A stretch of 64,000 bases of DNA from Salmo salar. Its lineage: Eukaryota. The stretch's first letter is position 1. Every line of letters starts with the position of its first letter. The stretch covers positions 34,224,034 through 34,288,033 of the forward strand of contig NC_059455.1 of NCBI RefSeq assembly GCF_905237065.1. The letters run 5' to 3'. Under the pieces are notes generated by a model, which worked only from the letters and a program-made list of their open reading frames with translations, did no database searches and had not been told where the DNA came from. Positions 3,372 through 62,015 of the stretch are shown here, in pieces. Both the position numbers and the translations under genes were made by a program.

Positions 3372-3671
3372 CTAGATGATCTGTCCTCTGGGGTGTAGGA
3401 GGATGGCGTTGGAGTGTGGTTTGGGCCGCAGGAACCCGTTGCTGTAGTGGAAGTGGTTGGAGAGCGCCTCTGAGATCTGGTAAGAACTGGTGTCACAGTC
3501 TGCCTCATCAACCTCCAGCACAGCCCGGCTGTGGCCCCAGTCTTCCCCTTTGGTCACCCCCTCCCTCTGGCCACACAGGTCACTGAGCATTGGAGGGATG
3601 TCTGTGGGCCCCACACTGCCATCCTGGTCCTGGGGCTTGATGGGGACAAGGGAGGAAGGAAGGCCAGAGTC
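3372..3671 (-). CDS. nectin4: nectin-4-like gene, last coding exon (cytoplasmic tail, 99 aa plus stop)
   Basis: ORF 3372..3698(-). Acceptor 'caattttgcag|GACTCTGG'. The C-terminus '...EALSNHFHYSNGFLRPKPHSNAILLHPRGQII*' parallels the mammalian nectin-4 tail '...[31 protein letters not shown]'. Confidence 0.7.
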   Translation of the reverse strand, partial: DSGLPSSLVPIKPQDQDGSVGPTDIPPMLSDLCGQREGVTKGEDWGHSRAVLEVDEADCDTSSYQISEALSNHFHYSNGFLRPKPHSNAILLHPRGQII

Positions 3672-3833
3672 CTGCAAAATTGAGACCACATATTGCAAGG
3701 CATTGAGAAAAACAGATAGGCCTGTGAGTTATTACAGAATAAACAATGTGCATTTAAACTTTTACGTATACTCTTCCTTGATCAGACAAATACACACCAG
3801 GGACATATTGCTTCTCTTCAGGTACGACTCCAC

Positions 3834-4010
3834 CCTTCGTCTGCGCTCTTCCCTCTCGCCCTCCATCTCAGCGCCCCTCATACTCTCTCTGCCCTCATGC
3901 CAGCTAGACTGGTACAGGACAGGGCGGCCTAGGTAGTCCACATCCCCCTGTCCAACAGTCCCACGCCTCCCAACCAGGGATGATTCACTGCCTATGTAGA
4001 TGGGACGGTC
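3834..4010 (-). CDS. nectin4: nectin-4-like gene, cytoplasmic exon (59 codons, DRPIYIGSESSLVGRRGTVGQGDVDYLGRPVLYQSSWHEGRESMRGAEMEGEREERRRR). The 3' boundary is tentative.
   Basis: Acceptor 'cctgttag|GAC' is in phase with the preceding exon. The frame is open, acidic and arginine-rich like the nectin-4 cytoplasmic region. The donor was chosen as AGG|GTGGAG to keep phase 0 into the last exon, but alternative donors exist. Confidence 0.45.
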
Positions 4011-4317
4011 CTAACAGGAGGGATCCAAATAATGCCATATATTAAACGTCAATGAAAAAAAATCTTTGATAGTGGACATAATGTTGTAGATGTATAATAT
4101 TGCTTAAAAGTATTTTATGGAACTCACCTCAAGGGACATTAGGCTGTTTTTCATTCTACTGTCTAGTCTAAGTAGTGTACAGTCTTCATTCTGGGGTGAA
4201 AAGTAGAGAGAATTATTTGGGGTATCACAGTCATTCACAAATAGATACTAACTGTTCATGATAGTTTATCATCTATTTTGCTCAAATTTCCAGTTGAGTA
4301 TGTAAAGTACTGAGTAC

Positions 4318-4393
4318 CTGTCCTCTGGGGTCTGTGCTGACAGAGTTGAGTCTCTGAGAGGAGTCCTGTCTGGAGAGTGTGTTGATTTTTAAA
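4318..4393 (-). CDS. nectin4: nectin-4-like gene, cytoplasmic exon (TLKINTLSRQDSSQRLNSVSTDPRGQ)
   Basis: ORF 4282..4626(-) fragment. Acceptor 'tctttcacag|T', donor 'CAG|gtactc'. 'TDPRGQ' matches nectin-4 'HTDPRSQ'. Confidence 0.6.
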
Positions 4394-4429
4394 CTGTGAA
4401 AGACAGAGAATGTCAAACTGAAGGGGATT

Positions 4430-4600
4430 TGAGGATAGGGGTTAAGAGCATTGGGCAAGTAACCAAAAGGTTGCTGGTCTGAATCCCAGAGCCGACTAGG
4501 TGAACAATTGCAGATGTGCCCTTGTGCAAGGCACTTAACCCTAATTGCTGCTGTAAGTCGCTCTGGATAACAGAATCTGCTAAATGACTCAAATGGAAAG
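4430..4600 (+). mobile_element. Salmonid tRNA-derived SINE (HpaI/SmaI-type) in a nectin-4 intron
   Basis: tRNA-like head 'gggttaagagcattgggcaagtaaccaaaaggttgctggtctgaatccc' and body '...gtgcccttgtgcaaggcacttaaccctaattgctgctgtaagtcgctctggataacagaatctgctaaatgac'. Confidence 0.7.
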
Positions 4601-4631
4601 GGGGAGCAAAGTATTGTGGAAATCAACTCAC

Positions 4632-4797
4632 GTTCTTTCGCTAAGCTCCATCTCTAATTTTCTGTTTTTGCGCCTGTGGTATCGGTTGACTAAGATGATG
4701 ATGATGATCATGACGATGACCAAAACCCCAGCAGCCACAACTATAATGATCATCACTAGAGTGTCAACAGTGGTTTCCTGCACACTGCGAATTCTCT
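4632..4797 (-). CDS. nectin4: nectin-4-like gene, transmembrane exon (TLVMIIIVVAAGVLVIVMIIIIIL followed by stop-transfer NRYHRRKNRK)
   Basis: ORF 4628..4834(-). Acceptor 'cacatag|AG', donor 'AGAAC|gtgagt'. A hydrophobic 24-residue helix is followed by a basic cluster. 'RYHRRK' is shared with mammalian nectin-4 (SRYHRRK). Confidence 0.8.
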
Positions 4798-5010
4798 CTA
4801 TGTGAGGGAAGGGAACATACACAATTGTAAACAAATGACCAACTACAGTGATCTAGTTAAGTTGCGGATTTTCTATTTGAGCAAAGTTGGTATTTCAGAT
4901 CATCACAAGGGGGCAGCAATGTTGCACAAATGGTACCAAACACATCAGGAGATAAGTTCTATTATGCTGTCCAGGTTCTCCCAAAATACAGGAGTAACTT
5001 TGCCCATTAC

Positions 5011-5162
5011 CTGTCACTGTGATGTTCGATTCTACTTTCCTTGTCCCAATGCCGTTGTTCACCACACATTCATAAACTCCAGTGTCATTCTGTCTCAGGG
5101 CTCGGCCAAACAGAAGCCTTGCTCCATTCACAGTAAGACCGTCTGGCAGGGCCTTACCACCC
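5011..5162 (-). CDS. nectin4: nectin-4-like gene, second half of the membrane-proximal Ig C2 domain (…GVYECVVNNGIGTRKVESNITVT)
   Basis: ORF 4895..5233(-). Acceptor 'ctgcag|GGG', donor 'ACAG|gtaatg'. Contains the Ig Y-x-C motif. Confidence 0.8.
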
Positions 5163-5235
5163 CTGCAGATGGAGACAAACACATACAGGAAATTAAAGAA
5201 GAATGTCCATATTAATACTGAGCTACTCAACAATG

Positions 5236-5890
5236 TAATCGTAACCTACTTAACATGCACTACATGACCAAAAGTATGTGGAAACCTGCTCATCAAACAT
5301 CTCATTCCAAAATCCTGGGCATTAATATGGAGTTGGTCCTCCCTTTGCTGCTATAAGAGCCTCCACTCTTCTGGGAAGGCTTCCCACTAGATGTTGCGGG
5401 GACATACTTCAATTCAGCCATGAGCATTAGTGAGGTCGGGCACTGATGTTGGGCGATTTGGCCTGGCTCGCAGTAGGCGTTCCAATTCATCCCAAAGGTG
5501 TTTGATGGGGCTGAGGTCAGGGCTCTGTGCAGGCCAGTCAAGGACAGACAATTTTTTAAGTGCTATATGCTTCGGCACTCTGTGGACCCGTTCTGTGAGC
5601 GTGTGTGACCTACCACTTCCCGGCTGAGCCGTTGTTGCTCCTAGACCTTTCCACTTCACAAAAACAGTATTTACAGCAGCTCTAGCAGGGAATACATTTT
5701 ACAAATTGGCTTGTTGGGAAGGTGGCATCCTATGATGGTGCCATGTTGAAAGTCACTGAGCTCTTCAGTAAGGCCATTCTACTGCCAGTGTTTGTCTATG
5801 GAGATTGCATGGCGGTGTGCTCGATTTTATACACCTTTCAGCAACGGGTGTGGCTGAAATAGCTGAATCCACTAATTTGTGTGTGATATA
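5236..5890 (-). mobile_element. Internally deleted Tc1-like DNA transposon (transposase remnant on - strand) in the nectin-4 intron
   Basis: Terminal 'tacatgaccaaaagtatgtggaaacctgctcatcaaacatctcattccaaaatc...'. ORFs 5414..5659(-) and 5302..5541(-) encode the Tc1 transposase C-terminus ('DWPAQSPDLSPIKHLWDELER'). Confidence 0.75.
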
Positions 5891-5909
5891 GATACACACA
5901 CACACACAC

Positions 5910-7496
5910 AGTTGAAGTCGGAAGTTTACATACACTTAGGTTGGAATCATTAAAACTCGTTTTTCAACCACTCCACAAATTTCTTGTTAACAAACTATAG
6001 TTTTGGCAAGTCGGTTAGGACATCTACTTTGTGCATGACACAAGTAATTTTTCCAACAACTGTTTACAGACAGATTATTTCACTTATAATTCACTGTATC
6101 ACAATTCTAGCGGGTCAGAAGTTTACATACACTAAGTTGACTGTGCCTTTAAACAGCTTGGAAAATTCCAGAAAATTATGTCATGGCTTTAGAAGCTTCT
6201 GATAGGCTAATTGACATCATTTGAGTCAATTGGAGGTGTACCTGTGGATCTTTTTCAAGGCCTACCTTCAAACTCAGTGCTTATTTGCTTGACATCAAGG
6301 AAAATCAAAAGAAATCAGCCAAGACCTCAGAAAATAAAATGTAGACCTCCACAAGTCTGGTTCATCCTTGGGAGCAATTTCCAAATGCCTGAAGGTACCA
6401 CGTTCATCTGTACAAACAATAGTACGCAAGTTTAAACACCATGGGACTACGCAGCCATCATACCGCTCAGGAAGGAGACACGTTTTGTCTCCAAGAGATG
6501 AACGTACTTTGGTGCGAAAAGTGCAAATCAATCCCAGAACAACAGCAAAGGACCTTGTGAAGATGCTGGAGGAAACAGGTACAAAAGTATCTATATCCAC
6601 AGTAAAACGAGTCCTATATCAACATAACCTGAAAGGCCGCTCAGCAAGGAAGAAGCCACTGCTCCAAAACCGCCATAAAAAAGCCAGACTACGGTTTGCA
6701 ACCTCTGGTCTGATGAAACAAAAATAAAACTGTTTGGTCATAATGACCATTGTTATGTTTGGAGGAAAAGGGGGATGCTTGCAAGCCGAAGAACACCATC
6801 CCAACCGTGATGCATGGAGTGGCAGCATCATGTTGCGGGGGTGCTTCGCTGCAGGTGGGACTGGTGCACTTCACAAAATAGCATCATGAGGCAGGAAAAT
6901 TATGTGGATATATTGAAGCAACATCTCAAGACATCAGTCAGGAAGTTAAAGCTTGGTCGCAAATGGGTCTTCTAAATGCACAATGACCACAAGCATACTT
7001 CCAAAGTTGTGGCAAAATGGCTTAAGGACAACAAAGTCAAGGTATTGGAGTGGCCATCACAAAGCCCTGACCTCAATCCCATAGAACATTTGTGGGCAGA
7101 ACTGAAAAGGCATGTGCGAGCAAGGAGGCCTACAAACCTGACTCAGTAACACCAGCTCTGTCAGGAGGAATGGGCCAAAATTCACCCACCTTATTGTGGG
7201 AAGCTTGTGGGAGGGTACCCGAAACATTTGACCCAAGTTAAACAATTAAAAGGCAATGCTACCAAATACTAACTGAGTGTATGTAAACTTCTGACCCACT
7301 GGGAATGTGATGAAAGAAATAACGATTTATTTAAGCTTTTATCTCTACTATTATTCTGACATTTCACATTCTTAAAATAAAGTGGTGATCCTAACTGACC
7401 TAGGACAGGGAATTTTACAAGGATTAAATGTCAGGAGTTTTGAAAACTGAGTTTAAATGTATTTGGCTAAGGTGTATGTAAACTTCCGACTTCAAC

Positions 7497-7497
<1 letters not shown>
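5910..7497 (+). mobile_element. Full-length Sleeping-Beauty-type Tc1 element (about 1.6 kb) with a degraded transposase, flanked by (CA)n and (TG)n
   Basis: Inverted repeats 'cagttgaagtcggaagtttacatacac' at 5910 and 'gtatgtaaacttccgacttcaactg' at 7470-7495. ORF 6368..6727(+) encodes the transposase N-terminus ('GAISKCLKVPRSSVQTIVRKFKHHGTTQPSYRSGRR...'). Downstream frames are broken by stops. Confidence 0.85.
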
Positions 7498-7528
<31 letters not shown>

Positions 7529-7537
7529 AATGTACTT

Positions 7538-8588
7538 ACAGTGCATTCGTAAAGTATTCAGACCCCTTCACTTTTTCCACATTTTGTTACGTTACAGCCT
7601 TACTCTAAAATGGATTAAAGTGTTTTGTTTTTATCTACACACAATTCCCCATAATGACAAGACAAAAAACTGAAATATCACATTTATGGAGGTCCTGAGC
7701 ACTCTGGATCAGGTTTTCATCAAGGATCTCTGTACTTTTCTCTGTTCATCTTTCCCTCGATCCTGGACTAGTCTCCCAGTCCTTGCCGCTGAAAAACGTT
7801 CCCACAGCATGATGCTGCCACCATTATGCTTCCCTGTAGGGATGGCATTGGCCAGGTGACGAGTGGTGCCTGGTTTCTTCCAGATGTGACGCCTGGCATT
7901 CACGCCAAAGAGTACAATCTTGGTTTCATCAGACCAGAGAATCTTGTTTCTCATGGTCTGATAGTCCTTTTGGCAAACTCCAAGTAGGCTGTCATGTGCA
8001 TTTTACTAAGGAGTGGCTTCCGTCTGGCCACTCTACCATAAAGGCCTGATTGGTGGACAACTGTAGAGATGGTTGTCCTTCTGAAATGTTCTCCCATCTC
8101 CACAAAGGAACTCTGGAGCTCTGTCAGAGTGACCATCAGGTTCTTGGTCACCTCCCCGACAAAGGCCCTTCTCCCCCGATTGCTCAGTTTGGCCGGGCAG
8201 CCAGCTCTAGGAAGAGTCTTGATGGTTCCAAACTTCATCCATTTAAGAATGACGGAGGCCACTGTATTCTTGGGGACCTTCAATGCTGCAGAAATGTTTT
8301 GGTACCCTTCCCCAGAGCTGTGCCGAGACACAATCCTGTCTTGGAGATCTACGGACAATTCCTTCGAACACATGGCTGAGTTTTTGCTCTGACATGCACC
8401 GTCAACTGTGGACCTTATTTAGACAGGTGTGTGCCTTTCCAAATCATGTCCAATCAATTGAATTTACCACAGGTGGACTCCAATCAAGTTGCAGAAACAG
8501 CTCAAGGATGATCAATGGAAACAGGATGCACCTGAGCTAAACATTTTTGAGTCTCATAGCAAAGGGTCTGCATACTTATGTAAAGAAT

Positions 8589-8667
<79 letters not shown>

Positions 8668-8822
8668 TTTGCTAACATTTAAAAAAAAAAAAAACGTTTT
8701 CATTATGGGGCATTGTGTGTAGATTAAGGGAAAAAAAGATTTAATCCATTTTAGAATAAGGCTGTAACGTAACAAAATGTGGAAAAAGTGAAGGCGTCTG
8801 AATACTTTCGGAATGCACTGTA
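7538..8822 (-). mobile_element. Tc1-like element of a second family, internally deleted (about 1.3 kb), transposase on - strand with a frameshift, containing a (TA)n microsatellite
   Basis: Termini 'tacagtgcattcgtaaagtattcagaccccttcactttttccacattttgttacgttacagcc' and its reverse complement at 8790-8822. ORFs 7951..8373(-) and 7709..7954(-) are transposase ('...WSDETKIVLFG...HGGSIMLWE...'). Confidence 0.85.
8591..8656. repeat. (TA)n microsatellite of about 33 units followed by (CA)4 and A14
   Basis: Direct reading of the sequence. Confidence 0.95.
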
Positions 8823-10068
8823 TGACTAATGGAATAGCAGACTCACTGCATGAAACAACGACTATGTTCATGAAGGCAGATGTATTGGGCAGTGTTGATC
8901 AATTCTCAATTCAAAAGTTCTAAGTCAATTTATGAAAAAAAATTAAAAGCCTTTTGTTCAGCTAGATATTACCAGAATATAAACCTCTGAAGGGAATGTC
9001 AGCTAAGCTACACAGAAGTAGCCTATAATTACAGCCAAACAATAGGTCAGTGTGCATTGGTGAGGTGTTTTAGCAAAATACATTTGTTACATCAGGTTTA
9101 CCACAAAAGGGAAACCAGCAATTTGCATTTATCTGTAAAACCAGTTTAATTACTGCTCCTATTGATCTGAATAGACAAATGCCGCTTGGCTTGGTATGAG
9201 CCAACTACTATATGAAGGAAGACTAAGAGGCCCCTGAATAAGCTCAGACGTCCCAGGAAGTATAATAGAGAGGCAGTTTCTGATCCCACCAGGAACTAGG
9301 TCCACTGAGAGGGCTCAAGTTGCCCAAGTTTCACTGTGCCAGCCAGGCTGCCATTTTACTGTTCACCCCAACAAGGGGCTTCTCACATTTCTCTTCTTAC
9401 TCACTCAGCCCCACCTTATTACCAATCCTTTATAATGGAATCAAAGCCAGAGATTACATCTGACACTGAATACATGTTTGACAATAATTATACTGACAGG
9501 GTTTATTTTCATTCAAATGCATTAAGGTTTTAGAAACATGCCATAAATGTGATACTCTATATACAGTACATTTAGAGCAATTTTGGAAAAGTATCTCTCC
9601 TTCAATTATTTTTAACTACTGCGGAAACTGACACACGATTTGTTAGCATGTTGCAATAGTGAGTATTTAATTGTGTGTTCTGTCATTATTGTAATGCTCA
9701 GAGAAGAATCTTTAATTACGCGCAGACCCTGTGTTTTACAGTGTATTAGAGTGATATTTAAAGCGAGGCACTATGATTAAGTGCTTAAGAGGCGTCTCCA
9801 GCGCTTCCTCCCTCCATGGCTCCCTCCCCTCCCTGGATCGCTCACTCGTGTGAAAATGTCTCCCTTTCAATCGGTTTTCTAATTCTGTAACTCGACAATG
9901 TATTTATTCCATATTGAATGGAACAAAGAGGAAGACACCCTCCTCTAGTTGACACTTTATCCTGCATGTGTGTGTGTTACTTTTGCAAATATTAGAATAG
10001 TAAATTTTTAGTGCAGAGTGTTACATTACGCAAATAATGACAGACAGAAATAGTCAGACAGGTAATAC

Positions 10069-10186
10069 CTGGTCCAGGTGAAGCTCTGTGGTTTGGGGTT
10101 TCCTCCAGTCTCACACTTGAGTTCAGCTCCCTTCAGTCCCATGTACCAGTTTCCATTATAGCCAGTGACAGCTGCATCTGGGGGAA
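10069..10186 (-). CDS. nectin4: nectin-4-like gene, first half of the membrane-proximal Ig C2 domain (PPDAAVTGYNGNWYMGLKGAELKCETGGNPKPQSFTWT)
   Basis: ORF 10026..10208(-). Acceptor 'ttgacag|TT', donor 'ACCAG|gtatta'. Matches the nectin pattern 'SGYDDNWYLGR..L.C'. Confidence 0.8.
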
Positions 10187-10273
10187 CTGTCAACATCAAC
10201 TTTGTCACTTTAATCCAAGCATGGCCATTTAACTATACTACCCCACCATAGTGACAGCTGAGGGTAAACTCAC

Positions 10274-10552
10274 ATTGCACCACCAGGCGGTTACTGATCC
10301 TCCGGGGTTGCTCCAGAGCAGGGTGCCAGACGAGGCAGTCCAGCCGCATGCCGTTCATACTCCTCAGGGGGTGCAGGGAGAAGTGGGTGGACACGGCCCC
10401 GCCCTCGGAGCTGCGGTTCTGCGTCTGACCAGGGAGATCCGTATCCCAGGTCAGTCGAGGTGGAGGACGGGCCACGGAGCGGCAGGAGGCAGCTATGCGG
10501 AAGGACTGGCCCTCCTCCAGAACCACCGGGTCCAGAGAAGAGATTGGTAGGG
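10274..10552 (-). CDS. nectin4: nectin-4-like gene, middle Ig C2 domain exon
   Basis: ORF 10233..10688(-). Acceptor 'cccccccag|CC', donor 'CAAT|gtgagt'. The sequence '...ASCRSVARPPPRLTWDTDLPGQ...RLDCLVWHPALEQPRRISNRLVVQ' gives a C...W...C spacing typical of an Ig C2 domain. Confidence 0.8.
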
Positions 10553-10797
10553 CTGGGGGGGAAGGGAGGTAGAGGGGCAGGGCCAGGCTATATGAGATTC
10601 CATGTTGTGCAGGTAAATCGAGTGCGTAAGTAAGGTTTTGGTCAGTCAGAACAGAGATTTCCTTCCGTGGTTGACTCCAACAAATCAAGTCAAATGTTGG
10701 GTTATTAACAGGAAATGACTATGATGAGTATAACAACGAAAATAGTCACATGGTTTACAACTATGATGAAGAGGATGGTGAAAGTAATTAGTCTTAC

Positions 10798-10965
10798 TCC
10801 ACACAGTGAGTGACAGCTGCCTCTCAAAGTTCCCATAGGGGAATGTGCTGATGTGACAGGTGTATTTCCCCTCATAAGACTCCTCCGTGTTCATGATGAG
10901 CAGGGCAGAGTCCACTGTGGGGCTACTGCTCTCAAACCTCACTCTCCCAGAGTACCGCCCAAACT
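10798..10965 (-). CDS. nectin4: nectin-4-like gene, V-domain exon 2 (EFGRYSGRVRFESSSPTVDSALLIMNTEESYEGKYTCHISTFPYGNFERQLSLTVW)
   Basis: ORF 10685..10942(-). Acceptor 'tctgtcag|AG', donor 'TGGA|gtaaga'. Contains the nectin/PVR-family T(F/Y)P motif (compare nectin-1 'YICEFATFPTGNRESQLNLTV'). Confidence 0.85.
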
Positions 10966-11144
10966 CTGACAGACATAAGACAGAGAGACAAACAGAGAGA
11001 CAAAGACTGATTTATTCCTGGTAAACATTACAATCATTGCAGACAAATGCAAGAAAACAACATTATGATTATAGTGATTGAGTGACTAAGTGGTTAAGAT
11101 GGGGGTCTACTCTGTGTGAGTTGGTGAGGGCATAATGTACCAAC

Positions 11145-11342
11145 CTGTGTGTCCCTCTGTGAGGTGGGCAGTGATGATTTGTTCCTTGGTGCCATCAGGT
11201 AGCTCCTTGAACCAGCTGACCTGAACTACCTGCTCCTCCTCCTGAACTTGAAACTGACAGGGCAGCCGCGTCTCATCCTCCGTCAAGGAACACATGGAGA
11301 AGGACGGAGGAGGCTCCACAAACCCACCCCTCACACACACTG
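11145..11342 (-). CDS. nectin4: nectin-4-like gene, V-domain exon 1
   Basis: ORF 11107..11340(-). Acceptor 'ctcatacag|CA', donor 'ACACAG|gttggt'. '...LPCQFQVQEEEQVVQVSWFKELPDGTKEQIITAH...' carries the V(S/T)Q-type motif region. Confidence 0.75.
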
Positions 11343-11830: not shown

Positions 11831-11994
11831 CCCTATTTGTATTTATTATGGATCCCCTGACAGAGTACTCTTCCTGGGGTCCAGAAAAATTAAGGCAGAT
11901 TATACAATTTTAAAAACATTACATTCACAGACTGTGTGCCCTCAGGCCTCTATTCCACCACCCTATGCTCCTTTGAAAGTCACTGAGATCTTAA

Positions 11995-54655: not shown

Positions 54656-55489
54656 ATTGCCTACTGCAGTACCTTCTCCTGTCCTAGACCATGTCCTGTA
54701 CCAAAACCATGCTGGGAAATAGTAGAGAAGCAACACTAGATAGGAAAAAAGGCCATGTTTATTTAGTTAAAGGCAATAATCACATTTATTCCCCAGTTGG
54801 TCAAAATCAGAGGTCACCTTCACATACAAAAAACCTCCAGGTCAATTAACAATTCCATCAATACATGATTAAAAACATGTGGGCATGATGTTATTAAATC
54901 CTGCAATTTATGTCTAGATTTAAAATAAAATCGATTTTTAAAGACTGCAACCCAAATAAAAAAAATACTATTTCGATATCCGAATGTTTAAGGATAGTAG
55001 TGGTCATTCAGCTGTACCCACATCCAAAGTCCATTTGCCCGACATAAGGTTCATTCTCCTGAGAAAAGACAGGAAAGCTATTGTACATACTACAACCGCA
55101 TACTCAACAAACACACTTGCACACGCTCGCAAACACTCACCTCCCATTTGGACACACACTCACACGTCAAGGTCAAACAAAGTTTAGTGCCTAATCCCAT
55201 GATACAGTAAACAAAACATTATTTGACAAAACAAAATATGATTTTTTTTTTACAGTGGTGGCAATCTGACCCTGGTGAGTCCACATCCATCCAGGCCAAT
55301 CAAATCCGGTTATGTGTTAAAACTCATCTGTGTGAGTCCAAACAGCCCATTCACTGCGAGTTAAAACAACCAGTTCTGCCTAACCTGTCCATTTGTCTGT
55401 GTACCTATCGTGTGTAAAAAAAACAACAACAAAAAACAGTCTGTCCTGTTTGGTTGTGAGAGTAGTGGTCGCTGGTTAGTATGAGGCAA

Positions 55490-55612
55490 TCAGTATGCGC
55501 CGTTGTTGGGTTCCCTGACGGCGCTGAAGAGGACATCTGCCTTGGTACTGACAAAGTATGTCACCAGTAGCGATGTTAACAACACGGCCACTCCCACGCC
55601 TAAGGTCAGCAT
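55490..55612 (-). CDS. ncstn: ncstn (nicastrin) exon 17: transmembrane helix plus C-terminus (MLTLGVGVAVLLTSLLVTYFVSTKADVLFSAVREPNNGAY*)
   Basis: Acceptor 'ctctcatag|ATG'. Human '[40 protein letters not shown]'. The ORF-track frame (55476..55685) is the wrong frame. Confidence 0.85.
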   Translation of the reverse strand: MLTLGVGVAVLLTSLLVTYFVSTKADVLFSAVREPNNGAY

Positions 55613-55843
55613 CTATGAGAGAAATTAAGAGGAAAGAAAAAGGTAAATAATGTGATTCTCTTCTACCATCATCTTTATCAGACAATGGATACAGTCAAAC
55701 GTGTAAAACAAATATACAATAAAAATACAATATTTTACCACTTACACAGGCTTACTAGATTCAAACAGAACTACATGAACGTATACAAAACTGTAATTAA
55801 TTAAACAGATGGATCATGGTGGGAAAATTGAGTGCCGTTTTAC

Positions 55844-56056
55844 CTCCAGGTCCCGGCTGGCTACTAGGAAAATTCGTGCTTTGATGAACGTCCACTGCGA
55901 TTCTGTCCACGTGGAATATTCTTTGGAAACGTAATCCCCCAGGTCGAAGGCAGGGGACACTGCCTTGGCCAGGCGTACTGCTGTGCGTACGCAGAAAGAC
56001 TCCCTCTGGGTGCTGTTGGGTAGGACCATGCCCTGAACCCAGAAATAAGAGTACAT
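55844..56056 (-). CDS. ncstn: ncstn exon 16 (MYSYFWVQG...YSTWTESQWTFIKARIFLVASRDLE)
   Basis: ORF 55814..56056(-). Donor 'GAG|gtaaaa'. Human '[71 protein letters not shown]'. Confidence 0.9.
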
Positions 56057-56172
56057 CTGAGGGAGAGAATGAGCGAATCAGAGTGCGGTGTGGTTCCAGC
56101 AATACAAAGAAACACATTTTTCATTTGTAAACATCTATCCATCAGCACAGACAGATCCAGAGGCACATTTAC

Positions 56173-56339
56173 ATATGTGCTCTCGTTTGGCAGCTCATCT
56201 GGCTTCTTGCACTGGCTCTGGGTGAGGTTGGTGGCTGTTCCCGTTAAATTGGCCAGGAGATATTGGACCAGATAGGTCAGTGCGTTAGCCTGATGGGGCA
56301 ACTTGGCAACACCAACGTAGTACTGGGGTGGGTTGGGCT
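56173..56339 (-). CDS. ncstn: ncstn exon 15 (…PNPPQYYVGVAKLPHQANALTYLVQYLLANLTGTATNLTQSQCKKPDELPNESTY)
   Basis: ORF 55864..56364(-). Acceptor 'ctctcag|AG', donor 'TAT|gtaaat'. Human '[48 protein letters not shown]'. Confidence 0.9.
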
Positions 56340-56508
56340 CTGAGAGACAGAAAACACAATGCAATGAAGACCCAAGTACCTTCTTTATAGACGTGAGTGT
56401 GTCTGTGACTAGTCCAGATCTGCATGGGTTTTACGACGTCAGTAGTAGCAGAACACCTCTATAGTGCCAAAGGGTGTCCTTGTGAAAAAGTATCAGACTA
56501 AAACTCAC

Positions 56509-56596
56509 GGAGAACGTCCTTCAGTTCTGGGGCCATCAATGCTTGAAACCAGCTGTTGTTGGATCTAACCAGAAACCCATACAGCATCTGGGTCAC
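56509..56596 (-). CDS. ncstn: ncstn exon 14 (VTQMLYGFLVRSNNSWFQALMAPELKDVL)
   Basis: Acceptor 'ctctctcag|GTG', donor 'CTCC|gtgagt'. Human '[30 protein letters not shown]'. Confidence 0.85.
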
Positions 56597-56759
56597 CTGA
56601 GAGAGAGATGCACAGTGTTGGTCAAACAATTCTGCTCACTGTCCCAAAAAAAAAGAATTTTAAAAGATTTTAGATGTTGAGAATGACATATGTTAGCAGA
56701 CATATTGACAGTGTCATGGAAAATAACAGAGTATAACAGTATGACCGATCAGTTTAAAA

Positions 56760-57215
56760 AACATTTTTTAGCCCTTTTTCTCCCCAATTAAATTTTGTGG
56801 TATCCAATTGGTAGTTACAGTCTTGTCTCATCGCTGCAACTCCCGTACGGATTCGGGAGAGGCGAAGGTCGAGAGCCGTGCGTCCACCGAAACACAACCC
56901 AACCAAGCCGCACTGCTTCTTGACACAATGCCCACTTAACCCATCAATGTGTTGGCCGAAACACCGTGCACCTGGTGACCGTGTCAGCGTGCCCTGCGCC
57001 CGGTCCGCCACAGGAGTCGCTAGTGCGCGACGGGACAAGGACATCCCTGCCGGCCAAACCCTCCCCTAACCCGGATGATGCTGGACCAACTGTGCGCCGC
57101 CCCATGGGTCTCCCGGTCGCGGCCGTCTGCGACAGAGCCTGGACTCTAACCCAGAATCTCTAGTGGCACAGCTAGCACTGCCTTAGACCACTGCACCACT
57201 TGGGAGGCCATGACT
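56760..57215 (-). mobile_element. Full-length SINE (- orientation) in ncstn intron 13
   Basis: Same family as 46500-46940. Ends 'gcactgccttagaccactgcaccacttgggaggcc'. Confidence 0.75.
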
Positions 57216-57260
57216 GATCAGTTTGACTTGTACAACACCTCATCAATCATCGAGTCTTAC

Positions 57261-57359
57261 TGTTTTGGGGTCTGCATTGATGTTGTTGACTAGGGAGTTG
57301 TTTCCCCCAGCCTGCTTGAAGAGAGCGCGGGCAACTGCAGTAGCCACCTCGGTAAGAGA
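57261..57359 (-). CDS. ncstn: ncstn exon 13 (SLTEVATAVARALFKQAGGNNSLVNNINADPKT)
   Basis: Acceptor 'ctctttcag|TCT', donor 'ACA|gtaaga'. Human '[32 protein letters not shown]'. Confidence 0.85.
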
Positions 57360-57482
57360 CTGAAAGAGTACAGTGAGGGAGGGAAGAGAGAGAGATATTA
57401 TTCTAACAGACAGTGGACAATGTAATGGAAACTGTGACTACTACAAATAAATCCATCAGTGGGTTTACTATGGTAACAATAC

Positions 57483-57585
57483 CTTTGCAGTATCAGTCAC
57501 AAACTCTAGCTGTTCCTCTGGACTCAAGTTAGATGGATAAGTCAGGTTCAGGTGGGCAGCGTTGTCATAAAAACTCTCATAGTAT
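57483..57585 (-). CDS. ncstn: ncstn exon 12 ([34 protein letters not shown])
   Basis: ORF 57468..57656(-). Acceptor 'gcgcag|A', donor 'AAG|gtattg'. Human '[34 protein letters not shown]'. Confidence 0.9.
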
Positions 57586-58152
57586 CTGCGCATGGGTAAA
57601 CGAATTGCAAAAATTGCTGAAGTTGGAGAATTATCTCCCTCACTAACTTTAAACATCTGCTATCTGAGAAGCTAACCGATCGCTGCAGCTGTACACAGCC
57701 CATCCAATCTACCTACCTCATCCCCATATTGTTTAATTAACTTTTTTTGCACACCAGTATTTCTACTTGCACATCATCATCTGCACATCTGTCACTCCAG
57801 TGTTATTTGCTAAATTGTAATTACTTCACCAGTATGGCCTATTTATTGCCTTACCTCCTTACTCCATTTGCACACACTGTAAACTTTTTTTCTCTATTGT
57901 GTTATTGACTGTACGTTTGTTTATTCCATGTGTAACTCTGTGTTGTTTGTGTCGCACTGCTTTGCTTTATCTTAGCCAGGTCACAGTTGTAAATGACAAC
58001 TTGTTCTCAACTGTCCTACCTGGTTACACAAAGGTGAAATAAAAAATAAAAAAAACAGGGTAGAACACTTCACTAATAAACTCATATCAGGCAAGATAAA
58101 GATTGCAGTTATAAAAATGACCAGCAACGACAGACCATAGTCAAACACTCAC

Positions 58153-58322
58153 CTATTGTTGAAAGCTGTTTGATGGTCTGCAAGAAAAATTCCTGGAATT
58201 GCCCGAGCTCGGAGGAAACGCTGAAAGGAGGAGGGCGGGAGTGGCTGAGAAAAACCTGTCTCAACAAATGAGAAGTTGAGACCAGCCGTGGAGGACTGTA
58301 AGTTTTTTACAAGATTCGTAAC
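58153..58322 (-). CDS. ncstn: ncstn exon 11 ([56 protein letters not shown])
   Basis: Acceptor 'ctgtttcag|GTT', donor 'AATAG|gtgagt'. Human '[56 protein letters not shown]'. Confidence 0.9.
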
Positions 58323-58452
58323 CTGAAACAGAGGTAAGAGGTTGGGAAAAGTGGGTTGAGAGAGAGCATAATGAAGAGAATATAGAAAAAAGGGGTGGAT
58401 GAGGATGGACCAGGTAAGCGCGCCACAAATAGAATCATTTCACTCCCCCTTA

Positions 58453-58530
58453 CCTCGTCATGGACGGTGTTGTTCCTCCTGGACACAGGGTCTGAGTGAA
58501 GAAATAGGTTGGTGCCACTGCGCACTGCTA
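58453..58530 (-). CDS. ncstn: ncstn exon 10 (VAVRSGTNLFLHSDPVSRRNNTVHDE)
   Basis: ORF 58307..58525(-). Acceptor 'ttggttag|GTA', donor 'GAG|gtaagg'. Human '[29 protein letters not shown]'. Confidence 0.85.
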
Positions 58531-58650
58531 CCTAACCAATTACATTAGAGATTCATTGTTATTTGTTGGTTGATTGTATATCCATGCATTTTACACATTG
58601 ATGCCTGTTGTGTGCTTGAGTATTCAATGAGAACATATACATGTCTTAAC

Positions 58651-58755
58651 CTGTCCAATCTCCAGTATTGAGTGAACATTGTCCAGGTCTATCACAAACT
58701 TGTTATTCTTCATGTCATAAACCATTCGAGAGCTGCCAATGTAGTCAAATACTTC
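58651..58755 (-). CDS. ncstn: ncstn exon 9 ([35 protein letters not shown]), containing the DYIGS motif
   Basis: Acceptor 'ctctttcag|GAA', donor 'CAG|gttaag'. Human '[35 protein letters not shown]'. Confidence 0.9.
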
Positions 58756-58894
58756 CTGAAAGAGAGGAATAAGCTATAAACATCCTCTTACAGTACAACA
58801 CTGAACAATACTGCTATATGATAAAGTGACCACATGTGACTCCATAATTGACATACCACAGAATGACTTGCTAAGGGAGACCGAAGGAACTCAC

Positions 58895-59047
58895 CCCGTG
58901 GAAGAAGGCAAAGAGGATATTCCGTGTGGGAGGGGCTTCCTGAGTGGCTTCACGTAGTGCCTGGGCAGCAGCCAGCAGAGTAACAAACCCTGAGACACTC
59001 CCCTCCGCTCCTGTAGAATCCTGCAAGAAAAATGCCCTGCTGTCCAG
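58895..59047 (-). CDS. ncstn: ncstn exon 8 (LDSRAFFLQDSTGAEGSVSGFVTLLAAAQALREATQEAPPTRNILFAFFHG)
   Basis: Acceptor 'ccatttttgtag|CTG', donor 'GGG|gtgagt'. Human '[51 protein letters not shown]'. Part of it lies in ORF 58950..59162(-) in another frame. Confidence 0.85.
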
Positions 59048-59300
59048 CTACAAAAATGGAGAAAGAATCCAGTGTCCAGTCAATTTTCCATAAACGCCAA
59101 ACAAGGAAAAACCATATAAGGATTGTATAGAAGGAAATGGTACTGAGCAAATACCAAAGCACTTTTCAGGATGTGTATAACACACACTGGAATGTGGCTC
59201 ATATTGTATATACTATTTTGTAGATTCCAAAAGGCTTAGACATCTGTGAACATGTGACAAGATGAGTCAGTGGGAGGCAAGGCCTCAATGCATCACCCAC

Positions 59301-59413
59301 CCTGGCTGCTGCTACAACAACACTCTCGTTCTCCTTGTGACCAAAGGCGGTGCTGTTATAAGGCCGGATGAAAGCACACACATTATAATCACCTAGAGGG
59401 TTACACACCATCA
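59301..59413 (-). CDS. ncstn: ncstn exon 7 (…MVCNPLGDYNVCAFIRPYNSTAFGHKENESVVVAAAR)
   Basis: ORF 59199..59414(-). Acceptor 'ctcacag|TG', donor 'AGG|gtgggt'. Human '[36 protein letters not shown]'. Confidence 0.9.
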
Positions 59414-59516
59414 CTGTGAGAGAGAGAGAGAGAGAGCGAGAGAGATGTCTGTAATATATACATGACAGTGTGTGTATTGACTACTCACGCATATACAATA
59501 ATGCATCTTTGTATAC

Positions 59517-59661
59517 CTGGGGAGGTGCTGAAGTCGATGCTTCTGCGTCTCATGCAGGTTGCAGTGTCAGTGACAGCATACATATGAGATAAGAGCTGCA
59601 TGGCACACAGAGGGTACTGCAGGCCACTGCCGTTCACCACACGATTATGATCAAAGTAGCA
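59517..59661 (-). CDS. ncstn: ncstn exon 6 ([48 protein letters not shown])
   Basis: ORF 59485..59703(-). Acceptor 'ctacctgcag|TGC', donor 'CCAG|gtatac'. Human '[50 protein letters not shown]'. Confidence 0.9.
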
Positions 59662-59832
59662 CTGCAGGTAGAGAGTGGATACATTTATCAGAATGAGGAG
59701 CACATTGTTTTAATACACATAAATACTGTAGAATAAGACATCACCTCTGTTCTTTGAATAAAGACATTTCATGGTCATTAAGTGACATGATTTTACCAGA
59801 CTGGGTTGTGACTGCTTGAAGTGACTCCTCAC

Positions 59833-59978
59833 CTGTTTGATGGCCTCTGTTTCATTGTCTTCTTTCAGGGAGAAGACAGGGAAGTCAAATTCCTCATAGG
59901 ATAGACCGTTCCCCCGAGGATTCCATACAGTCGTGTTACAGTGCGCTAAATGATGATCATAGGTTTCCGTGTAAACAC
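59833..59978 (-). CDS. ncstn: ncstn exon 5 (…GVYTETYDHHLAHCNTTVWNPRGNGLSYEEFDFPVFSLKEDNETEAIKQ)
   Basis: ORF 59710..60009(-). Acceptor 'atcctcag|GT', donor 'CAG|gtgagg'. Human '[49 protein letters not shown]'. Confidence 0.9.
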
Positions 59979-60080
59979 CTGAGGATAAAAGTAAACAAAT
60001 GACGTTCAAAAAACATGCTGGTTAGCAAAGATCATTTGGTCATTTTAACAGACTATCGTCCTAATGCCTGATCCTCCTAC

Positions 60081-60196
60081 CTGTGTTCTCATTGGGACAT
60101 GTTGTATGTGGCGAGAACTCCGGTGGGCTAGTTTTTGGGACCACCACAACCCCTGCCACCCTGCTGGAGGCATTCTTAATCTTCATCATGATGGAC
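60081..60196 (-). CDS. ncstn: ncstn exon 4 (KSIMMKIKNASSRVAGVVVVPKTSPPEFSPHTTCPNENT)
   Basis: Acceptor 'ttttacag|G', donor 'ACAG|gtagga'. Human '[41 protein letters not shown]'. Not covered by any listed ORF in the right frame. Found by phase continuity. Confidence 0.8.
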
Positions 60197-60358
60197 CTGT
60201 AAAATTAGGACAATGTTCGAGTATGAGGGGGCTACTAGGATATAGATCATATCATTGTGTGGCTGTGCTGAACAATAGTCACAGTGAGAGTGTTCCAACT
60301 TTGTTCTGGAGGTCAATGGAGATGGAGTTGACTGTTTTTGGCTGTGTGTATTGCCTAC

Positions 60359-60470
60359 TTGGTGAAGAGGGATGACTCCAACAGGACCATATAAGGAGGA
60401 TTGGGTCCTTTGCTCAAAGGCCATTCCAGATCTGCCTCAGACTCCAAGACATGGATCACCCCTGTATCAC
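60359..60470 (-). CDS. ncstn: ncstn exon 3 ([37 protein letters not shown])
   Basis: Acceptor 'gatatcag|GT', donor 'CCAA|gtaggc'. Human '[39 protein letters not shown]'. Confidence 0.85.
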
Positions 60471-60606
60471 CTGATATCGAGGCTGAGACACAGGATAGAA
60501 AGAAATGCTTGTCTTAGTATGCAAATATCCAGCATTACATAAATATAGCAAGGATACAGAGCACAGTATTGTACCAAGCAGAGTGTGTGTGTGTCATGTC
60601 ACTCAC

Positions 60607-60708
60607 ACTGGCAGCCAATCTGATGTGTAGCATTGAGCAGTCGGACGCATGGTACAGTGTTATTCAGTTCGACATAAATCTTCTGCGCAACAGAGTTACA
60701 ACTCACAT
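60607..60708 (-). CDS. ncstn: ncstn exon 2 ([34 protein letters not shown])
   Basis: ORF 60599..60811(-). Acceptor 'tgtctttcag|AT', donor 'CAGT|gtgagt'. Human '[30 protein letters not shown]'. Confidence 0.9.
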
Positions 60709-60929
60709 CTGAAAGACAAAAGAAGAGAAACAATTGAATTGAAGTGACCAGTTTCTGTAATGATGTATTCCCAAGACACCAAACCAAATCGAATTGTATT
60801 GGTCGGTACACAGTTTAGCAGGTGGGTGCAGCAAAATGCTTATGTTCATAGTTCCTATCAAATAATGCAGTAAATGCCAATAAGCACAAAATAATATATT
60901 ATTTTGTACAGTAGTAGATATATAAATAG

Positions 60930-61460
60930 AATGTCAACAAATTTGCTTACATCCCTGTTAATAAGCATTTCTCCTTTTCCAAGATAATCCATCCACCTGA
61001 CAGGTGTGGCATATCAAAAAGCTGATTAAACATCATTATCATTACACAGGTGCACCTTGTGCTGGGGACAATAAAATGCCACCCTAAAATGTGCAGTTTT
61101 GTCACACAACGCCACAGAAGTCTTGAGGGAGCATGCAATTGGAATGCTGACTGCAGGAATGTCCCCCAGAGCTGTTGCCAGATAATTGAATGTTCGTTTC
61201 TCGACCATATGCGGCTTCCAACGTCATTTTAGAGAATTTGGCAGCATGTCCAACTGGCCTCACAATCGCAGACCACGTGTAACCACGCCAGCCCAGGATT
61301 TCCACATACCAGCTTCTTCACCTGCGGGGGATCCTCTGAGACCAGTCACCCGGACAGCTGATGAAACTGACGGGGTATTTCTGTCTGTAATAAAACCCTT
61401 TTGTGGGGAAAACCTATGCTTGTCCTAGGCCCACCCATGGCTGCGCCCTTGCCCAGTCAT
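60930..61460 (+). mobile_element. 5' fragment of a Tc1-like element in ncstn intron 1
   Basis: 'tacatccctgttaataagcatttctccttttccaagataatccatccacctgacaggtgtggcatatcaaaaagctgattaaacatcattatcattacacaggtgcaccttgtgctgggg...'. Frame-shifted peptides '[34 protein letters not shown]' match the transposase N-terminus. Confidence 0.7.
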
Positions 61461-61960
61461 GTGAAATTCATAGATTAGTGCCAAATTCTTTTATTTCAAT
61501 TGACTGATTTCCATATATGAACTGTAACTCCGTACAATCGTTGAAATGACTGCATGTTGCATTTATTTTTGTTTTGTATATAATGCCTGTATAGCCGCCC
61601 ACCCACTGCTTGCCTTGAGCTCTGAGTGGTCACGCTGTGGCTGACTCAAGTTGTGGTGCCTAGCAGCAACAGTATCAGTTTCACAAGTTTGCTAGTTAGC
61701 CAGCTGGTTAACATGGCTACCTATCTAGCTAAGTGCATCGCATACGGGATTTCAAAAAACTTGATACATAATTCGGGTTGTCTAGTGTACAATTATAAAG
61801 CATTATAATCCATAGGACCTCACTGTCAGCAACGTCGTTGACTAAATAATTGGGCTATTAGTTAGCTGTAGCTTACTGAGCCAAACTAAAACGGTAATAA
61901 GATATAGGTAAGTGAACGCATGTAGCTAGTATTAACGTTACAAACGAAAGGAATTCTTAC

Positions 61961-62015
61961 TTTTGAAAAGCCAACAAACTATGAACATAACCCATTTCGA
62001 TGATTCCAACGCCAT
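61961..62015 (-). CDS. ncstn: ncstn exon 1, predicted (MALESSKWVMFIVCWLFK, signal peptide)
   Basis: 'gaagATGGCGTTGGAATCATCGAAATGGGTTATGTTCATAGTTTGTTGGCTTTTCAAAA|gtaaga' on the complement strand. Kozak-like context and a GTAAGA donor. The phase-1 'A' joins 'AT' of exon 2 to give Asn, recreating the conserved N-S-V start of the mature protein. No homology expected because it is a signal peptide. Confidence 0.5.

Follow-up and report, generated by a model that had tools for sequence, protein, structure and literature searches.

Arrangement and probable origin of the ncstn, vangl2, fcer1gl and nectin4 gene block in Salmo salar

Four complete gene models, ncstn, vangl2, an FcR-gamma gene and nectin4, lie on the minus strand of the window, the stretch of 64,000 nucleotides of Salmo salar DNA analyzed here. 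They are very probably four functionally unrelated, independently transcribed tandem genes that are adjacent by inherited linkage, with a junction derived in teleosts. The block is 58,644 bp long and is bounded precisely by the stop codon of nectin4 at 3372 and the ATG of ncstn at 62015. The intergenic gaps measure 10,943 bp (ncstn-vangl2), 3,915 bp (vangl2-FcR-gamma), and 15,593 bp (FcR-gamma-nectin4).

The CDS models were built by exon mapping; all introns are GT-AG and none of the four models contains an internal stop. The translated products are residue-for-residue identical to the S. salar RefSeq proteins XP_013996167.1 (nicastrin isoform X1), XP_013996169.1 (Vangl2), XP_013996246.1 (FcR-gamma, also identical to ACI69533.1), and XP_013996174.1 (nectin-4 isoform X2). 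All four are carried by a single 101,980,477-bp record, and three have near-consecutive accessions (XP_013996167, XP_013996169, and XP_013996174). The RefSeq annotation describes the same locus and differs in nothing of substance; for the FcR-gamma gene the model represents isoform X3, for nectin-4 isoform X2, and other annotated isoforms take alternative splice sites. The gene identities, the order ncstn>vangl2>fcer1g>nectin4, and the shared strand, as given in a preliminary description of this DNA, are borne out by Pfam, PDB matches, and RefSeq identity. With all four genes already annotated, the locus is known, and it is a real but routine case of conserved synteny.

Gene models and repeat content of the block

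The gene ncstn (62015..55490, minus strand) encodes nicastrin, a gamma-secretase subunit of 699 aa. It has 17 coding exons: 62015-61961, 60708-60607, 60482-60359, 60196-60081, 59978-59833, 59661-59517, 59413-59301, 59047-58895, 58755-58651, 58531-58454, 58322-58153, 57585-57483, 57359-57261, 56596-56509, 56339-56173, 56056-55844, and 55612-55490. Pfam assigns Ncstrn_small (8.5e-24) and Nicastrin (7.6e-17), and the draft product matches human nicastrin among PDB sequences (E 1e-119). The gap toward vangl2 (44547..55489) holds a plus-strand LINE, with reverse transcriptase ORFs at 50419-51348 and 51352-52029 (RVT_1 2.6e-28 for the 310-aa ORF), and other repeat debris. That this gap contains no NHLH1-like bHLH ORF, as previously described, agrees with both searches: the best tblastn hit in 44.6-55.5 kb to an NHLH1 bHLH query had E = 0.3, and none of the stop-free segments of 35 aa or longer scanned on either strand matched an HLH domain in Pfam. 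This set excludes three long segments (two of the plus-strand LINE and one of 200 aa on the minus strand, antisense to the LINE), of which only one was scanned separately.

The planar cell polarity gene vangl2 (44546..34198, minus strand) has seven coding exons (44546-44476, 44245-44122, 43863-43256, 35827-35694, 35558-35423, 34942-34696, and 34458-34198). Its product of 526 aa ends in ETSV, contains a Strabismus domain (Pfam, 4.4e-198), and is identical to pike Vangl2 at 506 of 526 residues. Intron 3 (43255-35828, 7.4 kb) is packed with transposable elements, among them a Tc1 DDE_3 domain (Pfam, 5.3e-13) and a tRNA-like match with a UnaL2 3' element at 41870-42014. Because of transposable elements, the CDS spans 10.3 kb in salmon versus 3.1 kb in pike.

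The FcR-gamma chain gene (30282..28438, minus strand) consists of five coding exons (30282-30228, 29831-29737, 29459-29400, 28645-28625, and 28506-28438) and encodes 99 aa; in a longer isoform of the annotation, splicing to an acceptor farther upstream extends exon 4 to ~28687-28625. The product has the transmembrane motif LCYILDGIL and a single ITAM (YAGL-x7-YETI). It matches TCR_zetazeta (Pfam, 2.3e-14), and among PDB sequences the draft scored 8.7e-15 against FcR-gamma versus 1.3e-7 against CD3-zeta. Zebrafish fcer1gl has been described as a ray-finned-fish-specific paralogue of fcer1g with myeloid-restricted expression (PMC5340972); like this zebrafish pair, the gene in the window codes for an FcR-gamma-type adaptor with a single ITAM. 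Since fcer1gl is the name given to the positional counterpart in pike and to most other relatives in teleosts, and one source names the salmon protein "gamma polypeptide like," the gene would at best be a co-orthologue of FCER1G. Hence, of its earlier assignment as the FCER1G orthologue, the family membership stands, whereas a clean one-to-one orthology does not.

The gene nectin4 (teleost nectin4b; 12844..3372, minus strand) encodes 598 aa in 11 coding exons (12844-12781, 11342-11145, 10965-10798, 10552-10274, 10186-10069, 5162-5011, 4797-4632, 4393-4318, 4190-4128, 4010-3798, and 3671-3372). Its domains are V-set, C2-set_2, and Ig_3 (Pfam), and D1-D2 are closest to human nectin-4 among PDB sequences (130 bits versus 79 for nectin-3 and 60 for nectin-1). 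The product is identical to Oncorhynchus mykiss nectin-4 at 586 of 598 residues, and the DNA of the two loci at 94-95%, which fits a Salmo-Oncorhynchus comparison. Intron 5 (4.9 kb) contains Tc1/Sleeping-Beauty-like remnants, with HTH_SB and HTH_Tnp_Tc3_2 at 7954-8418. The repeat-bearing gap between fcer1g and nectin4 (12845..28437) harbors a degenerate Ty3/Gypsy pol on the minus strand at ~16.3-18.9 kb (Pfam RVT_1, RT_RNaseH, and Integrase_H2C2), a 27/54/108-bp minisatellite at 22320-22608, and a minus-strand LINE endonuclease/reverse transcriptase at ~25.5-27.1 kb (RVT_1 5.7e-25 and Exo_endo_phos_2). No host gene was seen there on unsystematic inspection, and in O. mykiss the 10-kb upstream flank of nectin-4 is free of called genes. 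Outside the block, a C2H2 zinc-finger gene (249..2650, plus strand; zf-C2H2 8.4e-13) converges with nectin4. A 407-aa zf-C2H2 gene occupies the equivalent convergent position at O. mykiss nectin-4.

The block in other teleosts

For each comparison locus, up to 10 kb of flank was visible. In pike (Esox lucius, CM021595.1), ncstn, vangl2, and fcer1gl are co-oriented with gaps of 8 and 4 kb, and no nectin4 was found within 10 kb of fcer1gl. In Limanda limanda (OY755004.1), vangl2 is followed after 1.8 kb by a TCR_zetazeta gene and after a further 2.6 kb by a 579-aa Ig-domain gene, all co-oriented. The latter product has V-set, C2-set_2, and Ig_3 domains and is taken as a putative nectin4 on the basis of these and of a nectin-4-like protein from the same chromosome record. 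Chanos (milkfish) has fcer1gl and, 2 kb on, nectin4, with no vangl2 found within 10 kb of fcer1gl; the vangl2 junction is thus shown directly in euteleosts only. Locus tags of nectin4, fcer1gl, and vangl2 are consecutive in Dallia (DPEC_G00067070/80/90) and close in Umbra (UPYG_G00293520/560/570).

Order and orientation in pike and Limanda are as in salmon, with tighter spacing: the distance between the ncstn and fcer1gl stops is 17.8 kb in pike versus 27 kb in salmon, and that between the vangl2 and nectin4 ATGs is 13.5 kb in Limanda versus 31.7 kb. The layout is therefore neither salmonid-specific nor especially compact.

Mammalian neighborhood and origin of the junction

The mouse order is Fcer1g...Nectin4...Slamf6, Vangl2, Nhlh1, Ncstn, and distal chromosome 1 reads Ncstn-Nhlh1-Vangl2-SLAM cluster-F11r/Usf1/Arhgap30-Nectin4-10 genes-Fcer1g (PMC6120100). 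Together with the gene identities, this order upholds the proposed correspondence to mammalian 1q23/mouse distal chromosome 1, as well as the swap of fcer1g and nectin4 relative to mammals: fcer1g(l) precedes nectin4 in salmon and follows it in mouse. The same four gene families share one segment, and ncstn>vangl2 keeps its relative order; in the salmon block, Nhlh1 between ncstn and vangl2, the SLAM cluster, and the other intervening genes were not seen. Human NECTIN4, which we take to lie on the opposite strand, differs in this from the four co-oriented salmon genes, and the human genes presumably span ~0.9 Mb compared with 59 kb. A single local inversion was considered as the source of the layout, as earlier proposed, and was rejected: a flip from beyond VANGL2 to FCER1G leaves fcer1g antiparallel, unlike the observed orientations.

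The ncstn>vangl2 pair is present in mouse, tarpon, a mormyrid, pike, and salmon and is a long-standing vertebrate linkage. The shared pair, and a layout that is widespread and stable in teleosts, would also fit an ancestral tight arrangement, one of two origins put forward previously. According to this, the bony-vertebrate ancestor had a packed ncstn>vangl2>fcer1g>nectin4 block, and tetrapods spread the genes through the SLAM/CD2 cluster, ~10 housekeeping genes, and a NECTIN4 inversion. Such an arrangement is unlikely. In sterlet, a non-teleost ray-finned fish, and in tarpon and Paramormyrops (a mormyrid), a SLAM-like V-C2 gene directly follows vangl2, 4.5-5.6 kb downstream on the same strand, and tblastn detects no fcer1g or nectin4 sequence in these vangl2 flanks (up to 10 kb). 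The closest full-length PDB match of the sterlet gene is SLAMF6 (1.6e-10), and the arrangement parallels the mouse Vangl2-Slamf6 adjacency. With vangl2 followed by a SLAM-like gene in sterlet, tarpon, mormyrid, and mouse alike, the vangl2/fcer1gl/nectin4 junction is probably derived within later-branching teleosts and not ancestral. This polarity rests on one locus from each of three early-branching lineages; sterlet and teleosts have had genome duplications of their own, and the SLAM-next-to-vangl2 state could belong to another paralogous region than the one assumed here.

The most likely source of the derived junction is rearrangement with gene loss that followed the teleost genome duplication, in the lineage toward clupeocephalan/euteleost fishes. 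There, fcer1gl>nectin4 would have taken the place next to vangl2 that SLAM-family genes occupy in mammals, sterlet, tarpon, and mormyrids. Inherited linkage, and not functional clustering, very probably accounts for the adjacency of the four genes.

Expansion in salmon and the Ss4R duplicate

In a later step, LINE, Tc1, SINE, and Gypsy insertions made the salmon block larger, not more compact, as seen from its domain and repeat content. The duplicate (homeologous) block left by Ss4R is found in O. nerka (CM068930.1), where, as in the window, nectin4 comes after vangl2 on the same strand. Unlike in the window, the two genes lie only 2 kb apart with no fcer1g sequence between them, and ncstn is absent from the 10 kb upstream. 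The duplicate shares 83-89% DNA identity with the window; in S. salar, the duplicate lies on a 105,780,080-bp record (XP_014047170/XP_014047171). This even tighter copy, from which fcer1g is gone, shows that post-duplication gene loss does reshape the region, and it speaks for the second suggested origin, a salmonid-specific compaction after Ss4R with a local inversion. That origin is nonetheless very improbable and is refuted by pike, which lacks Ss4R, and Limanda, which share order and orientation in less space, and by the expansion of the window relative to pike.

Least credible is a functional cluster of co-oriented membrane-protein genes held together by shared regulation or joint action: all four products are membrane proteins, and co-orientation and order persist across euteleosts, but three further same-strand choices have a chance of ~1/8, the Ss4R duplicate has lost fcer1g from its place between vangl2 and nectin4, the genes are set 4-16 kb apart by stretches full of transposable elements, the mammalian counterparts are presumably up to ~0.9 Mb apart, and the pathways (gamma-secretase, planar cell polarity, ITAM signaling in myeloid/NK cells, and epithelial adhesion) are unrelated.

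The Ss4R duplicate locus also aligns to 44463-45350 with 83% identity, and an untranslated 5' exon or a promoter of vangl2 may be located within 44.5-45.4 kb.

Gene models and identity of the four genes

The window contains no Ns, its GC content ranges from 36 to 49%, and the recognisable exons of four genes, ncstn, vangl2, an FcR-gamma gene and nectin4, lie in stop-free segments of the minus strand. The first Pfam scans were run on rough exon concatenations. Exons were mapped by tblastn with orthologous proteins from homology searches as guides, and junctions were then fixed; the full-length nicastrin guide was taken from a representative-protein search. The final four coding-sequence (CDS) models have GT-AG at all introns and no internal stops. 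All on the minus strand, ncstn spans 62015..55490 (17 coding exons, 699 amino acids), vangl2 44546..34198 (7 coding exons, 526 amino acids), the FcR-gamma gene 30282..28438 (5 coding exons, 99 amino acids) and nectin4 12844..3372 (11 coding exons, 598 amino acids). The block is 58,644 bp long, with intergenic gaps of 10,943, 3,915 and 15,593 bp. An exact-sequence look-up identified all four products as public Salmo salar proteins from one 101,980,477-bp record: nicastrin isoform X1 (XP_013996167.1), vang-like protein 2 (XP_013996169.1), high-affinity IgE receptor subunit gamma isoform X3 (XP_013996246.1, as well as the cDNA-derived ACI69533.1) and nectin-4 isoform X2 (XP_013996174.1). The window DNA is 94–95% identical to the O. 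mykiss nectin-4 locus, as fits a comparison of Salmo with Oncorhynchus. Together with the protein matches, this identity places the window in an annotated region of an Atlantic salmon chromosome. The complete CDS models and exact protein matches confirm the order ncstn>vangl2>fcer1g>nectin4 on one strand given in the preliminary description; its limits of 3372 and 62015 coincide exactly with the stop codon of nectin4 and the start codon of ncstn, and the hand-built gene models behind it are accurate to the start and stop codons.

The ncstn product contains the Pfam domains PF18266 (Ncstrn_small, 8.5e-24) and PF05450 (Nicastrin, 7.6e-17) and matches human nicastrin (PDB 5a63_A, E 1e-119) in five collinear stretches. 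The 699-residue model aligns end to end with a 710-residue vertebrate nicastrin. As read from the sequence, it has the DYIGS motif, whose significance in nicastrin is established, and a C-terminal hydrophobic stretch, MLTLGVGVAVLLTSLLVTYFV, corresponding to a single transmembrane helix. Human NCSTN consists of 17 exons.

The vangl2 product contains a full-length Strabismus domain (Pfam PF06638, 4.4e-198) that is present in all of its best 120 matches, and almost all source-named ones among these are called vang-like protein 2. The CDS ends in ...RLQSETSV*, that is, in the C-terminal PDZ-binding motif ETSV. Identity to pike vang-like protein 2 amounts to 96% (506/526), which, together with the match to XP_013996169.1, identifies the gene as Vangl2 and not as Vangl1 or the second teleost vangl2 paralogue. 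This second, more divergent "vang-like protein 2" occurs in percomorphs and salmonids on other chromosomes (Oreochromis CM007483.2 and O. clarkii CM099257.1). Both loci have different neighbours, the tilapia copy being located downstream of an ARHGEF11-like gene (PDZ-RGS-RhoGEF-PH), and the region may be the duplicate left by the teleost genome duplication. The O. clarkii copy (93% protein identity) was considered as an orthologue or as a duplicate from the salmonid genome duplication (Ss4R) and was rejected as such, its DNA similarity being limited to exons and repeats; it is probably an older vangl2 paralogue.

The FcR-gamma gene matches PF11628 (TCR_zetazeta, 2.3e-14) in Pfam. Its product has a zeta-family transmembrane segment with both the conserved Asp and the N-terminal Cys for dimerisation, and one ITAM of the form YxxL-x7-YxxI (YAGLTHKGQDTYETI); CD3-zeta has three ITAMs. 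Within the PDB, FcR-gamma is matched at 8.7e-15 over residues 33–104, comprising the transmembrane segment and the ITAM, whereas the match to CD3-zeta (1.3e-7) is confined to the transmembrane segment. A model with a 27-nt exon (QITTQITAL) was discarded at just 76–81% identity to annotated proteins, and the annotated exon structure was adopted instead. At 28625–28690 on the minus strand, splicing to an alternative acceptor further upstream, located at a tandem CAGCAG, adds 14 codons to exon 4 (ITTQITALVISILQ), in agreement with the annotation of a 113-residue isoform X1 for O. masou and other salmonids. Exon 3 (IHPIYINNGGSPQGTGGYPQ), rich in Gly, Pro and Tyr, is an insert that human FcR-gamma lacks and one pike isoform skips.

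The ectodomain of nectin4 contains V-set (7.6e-15), C2-set_2 (4.5e-9) and Ig_3 (1.4e-16) domains according to Pfam. One transmembrane helix, with the hydrophobic stretch LVMIIIVVAAGVLVIVMIIIIILV, is followed by a cytoplasmic tail; at the C-terminus, where a nectin would bind afadin, the protein reads ...LLHPRGQII. Compared with PDB structures over D1–D2, it scores 130.1 bits with nectin-4, 78.9 with nectin-3, 59.6 with nectin-1, 54.3 with PVR and 54.0 with nectin-2. Nectin-3 as the closest relative, suggested by the first PDB comparison, was a coverage artefact: the solved nectin-4 chain lacks D3, and D1–D2 alone ranks nectin-4 first. Among the best 120 database matches, most bear the names nectin-4, nectin-4-like, nectin 4b or poliovirus receptor-related protein 4; not one of the 120 is named after another nectin. 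The V-set is split by a short intron of 179 bp after ...TEGHT (11145/10965, minus strand). Chanos nectin4 is interrupted at the identical protein position (16477/17349 of its locus); hence, this intron is common to teleosts.

Gene order in other fishes and in mammals

Human NCSTN and FCER1G are about 0.87 Mb apart, and human NECTIN4 is antiparallel to the others. On mouse chromosome 1, the order is Fcer1g, ten genes, Nectin4, Arhgap30...F11r, a SLAM cluster ending in Slamf6, Vangl2, Nhlh1 and Ncstn (PMC6120100). All four window genes belong to this interval and lie here within 58.6 kb, an adjacency far beyond chance. Order and orientation are not conserved as a whole: fcer1g(l) and nectin4 are swapped, a swap first described relative to human and borne out against the mouse order, and the block lacks Nhlh1 as well as every gene that intervenes in mouse. 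The one collinear part is ncstn>vangl2, an adjacency that is old and shared in its order with mammals; in tarpon and Paramormyrops (a mormyrid), ncstn lies 5.4–5.6 kb upstream of vangl2. Compared with mammalian 1q23, the salmon block is thus a case of conserved linkage with rearrangement.

The absence of an NHLH1-like bHLH gene between ncstn and vangl2, also part of the preliminary description, holds as well. An NHLH1 bHLH query gave a best E of 0.3 by tblastn over the whole window. A Pfam scan of stop-free segments of at least 35 residues on both strands of 44.6–55.5 kb, leaving out two plus-strand LINE segments and one 200-residue minus-strand segment antisense to a LINE, yielded no HLH domain and a weak DDE_3 as its sole match; of the three omitted segments, only the 310-residue one was scanned separately, giving reverse transcriptase. 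The same query had no match in the ncstn–vangl2 gaps of pike, tarpon and Paramormyrops. With NHLH2 lying near VANGL1 in the paralogous human region on 1p13, the NHLH–VANGL linkage would be older than the vertebrate duplications, and ray-finned fishes would have lost or moved nhlh1 secondarily.

For the species comparison, each look-up covered the gene and at most 10 kb of flank per side. Pike has, on one strand, ncstn, 8.0 kb, vangl2 (CDS span 3.1 kb), 4.0 kb and fcer1gl, with no nectin4 in the next 10 kb. Limanda limanda has, also on one strand, vangl2, 1.8 kb, a TCR_zetazeta gene, 2.6 kb and a 579-residue nectin-type Ig gene. The latter is called nectin4 on the strength of its V-set, C2-set_2 and Ig_3 domains and because its chromosome record also encodes a Limanda nectin-4-like protein; a tblastn of trout nectin-4 against the locus-covered part of the gene gave no match. 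In Chanos, fcer1gl is followed after 2 kb by nectin4. In Dallia, nectin4, fcer1gl and vangl2 have successive locus tags (DPEC_G00067070/80/90), and in Umbra their tags are close (UPYG_G00293520/560/570). The vangl2>fcer1gl>nectin4 junction is thus common to euteleosts, with its fcer1gl>nectin4 part also found in an otocephalan, which means that it is neither particular to salmonids nor a product of the time after Ss4R.

A different neighbour is found in sterlet, tarpon and Paramormyrops, where a SLAM/CD2-family-like V-C2 Ig gene lies 4.5–5.6 kb downstream of vangl2 on the same strand (24039–28576, 18301–22729 and 18660–24152 of the respective loci). For the sterlet gene, SLAMF6 is the closest full-length PDB match (1.6e-10), and the tarpon and mormyrid genes resemble it. 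This arrangement mirrors the mammalian VANGL2–SLAMF6 adjacency. No fcer1g or nectin4 sequence was found in these three flanks; in salmon, pike and Limanda, the place after vangl2 is not taken by a SLAM-like gene.

Since vangl2 has a SLAM-like gene after it in mouse, in one ray-finned fish outside the teleosts and in two teleost lineages that branched early, these short flanks, which come from lineages with genome duplications of their own, would most simply be read as showing that the teleost vangl2>fcer1gl>nectin4 junction is derived. Tentatively, vangl2>fcer1gl>nectin4b may be a shared derived clupeocephalan/euteleost rearrangement that displaced the SLAM/CD2 cluster from its ancestral place beside vangl2; herein, fcer1gl would be a relocated fish-specific duplicate, not the positional orthologue of FCER1G, and the loss of nhlh1 from the ncstn–vangl2 gap a further ray-finned-fish feature. 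The block as a whole is an inherited linkage, most likely reshaped in teleosts by rearrangement and gene loss; in salmon, it was then inflated by transposable elements.

The preliminary description had offered either compaction with a local inversion or an ancestral tight arrangement. A single inversion from just beyond VANGL2 to FCER1G gives the right order and a co-oriented nectin4, but it predicts an antiparallel fcer1g and is insufficient; at least one more event is needed, or fcer1g is a duplicate inserted in sense orientation. That the window gene is a duplicate is plausible: the name fcer1gl is borne by its syntenic counterpart in pike and by most of its relatives in teleosts, "gamma polypeptide like" is one of the source names of the salmon protein itself, and zebrafish has both fcer1g and fcer1gl, the latter described as a fish-specific paralogue (PMC5340972). 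For the same reasons, the gene may not be a one-to-one orthologue of human FCER1G. Literature searched for the names FcRgamma-like and nectin4b yielded nothing useful on their chromosomal location. Compaction is contradicted by the smaller pike and flatfish counterparts, the salmon block being larger because of transposable elements. An ancestral tight arrangement is at odds with the SLAM-like gene that follows vangl2 in sterlet, tarpon, Paramormyrops and mouse.

The salmonid duplicate block and the nature of the linkage

The Ss4R duplicate block of O. nerka (CM068930.1, 10001–23117) is 83–89% identical to the window DNA and contains vangl2 and then nectin4, 2 kb apart; no FcR-gamma exon was detected between them and no ncstn within 10 kb. 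Its S. salar counterpart is represented by the consecutive XP_014047170 (nectin-4-like) and XP_014047171 (vang-like protein 2) on a 105.78-Mb record. In Coregonus, the contig with the second nectin-4 and vangl2 carries an fcer1g-like gene, apparently kept on that block, which suggests that one fcer1g(l) duplicate was lost in particular lineages. The region is therefore subject to gene loss after duplication, which argues against any functional requirement for the four genes to remain linked.

Nicastrin recruits substrates to gamma-secretase, Vangl2 functions in planar cell polarity, FcR-gamma in the ITAM signalling of myeloid and NK cells, and nectin-4 in epithelial adhesion. These pathways are unrelated, and none of the findings suggests joint regulation. 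Three extra same-strand choices would arise by chance with a probability of about one in eight. The observation is correct and the gene models behind it are excellent, at a locus that is already fully annotated and whose synteny is routine. Its value is mainly that of quality control, in that the window turns out to be ordinary, annotated Atlantic salmon genome sequence. It also provides a comparative footnote for the 1q23 immune-receptor region and the evolution of the fish FcR-gamma adaptor, with a SLAM-like gene beside vangl2 in early-branching ray-finned fishes versus fcer1gl–nectin4 in later teleosts, and with a salmonid duplicate block that has lost fcer1g. This detail can be read from existing genome browsers and raises no new question.

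Mobile elements, repeats and a neighbouring gene

In the 7.4-kb intron 3 of vangl2, a Tc1 element (DDE_3, 5.3e-13) interrupts fragments of LINE reverse transcriptase. Within this pile, Rfam reports a tRNA-like match directly followed by a UnaL2 LINE 3' element (41870–42014, plus strand), which is the structure of a tRNA-derived SINE borrowing a LINE tail. A second UnaL2 tail (33511–33564, minus strand) follows the stop codon of vangl2 after about 630 bp and may belong to its 3' UTR. A LINE related to that of intron 3 occupies part of the ncstn–vangl2 gap (RVT_1, 2.6e-28). The fcer1g–nectin4 gap contains a frameshifted Ty3/Gypsy pol (RVT_1, RT_RNaseH and Integrase_H2C2), a LINE endonuclease/RT and a minisatellite. 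In the degenerate integrase region of Ty3/Gypsy, a 131-bp unit is tandemly duplicated at 96% identity (16579–16840), so that the peptide …GDSFPFPCLSGFGPIYL appears twice in translation. The minisatellite has periods of 27, 54 and 108 bp (repeats 22320–22608) and yields a 229-residue Ser/Gly/Pro-rich open frame (22037–22723, minus strand), which has no Pfam match and is most likely repeat-derived rather than a gene. Intron 5 of nectin4 carries Sleeping-Beauty-like Tc1 remnants.

Convergent on the 3' end of nectin4, a C2H2 zinc-finger gene lies at 249–2650 on the plus strand. It consists of a coiled-coil-like N-terminal exon (249–566) and a large exon (1691–2647) that ends in two or three zinc fingers. 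O. mykiss has a 407-residue zf-C2H2 gene in the matching convergent position beside nectin-4.
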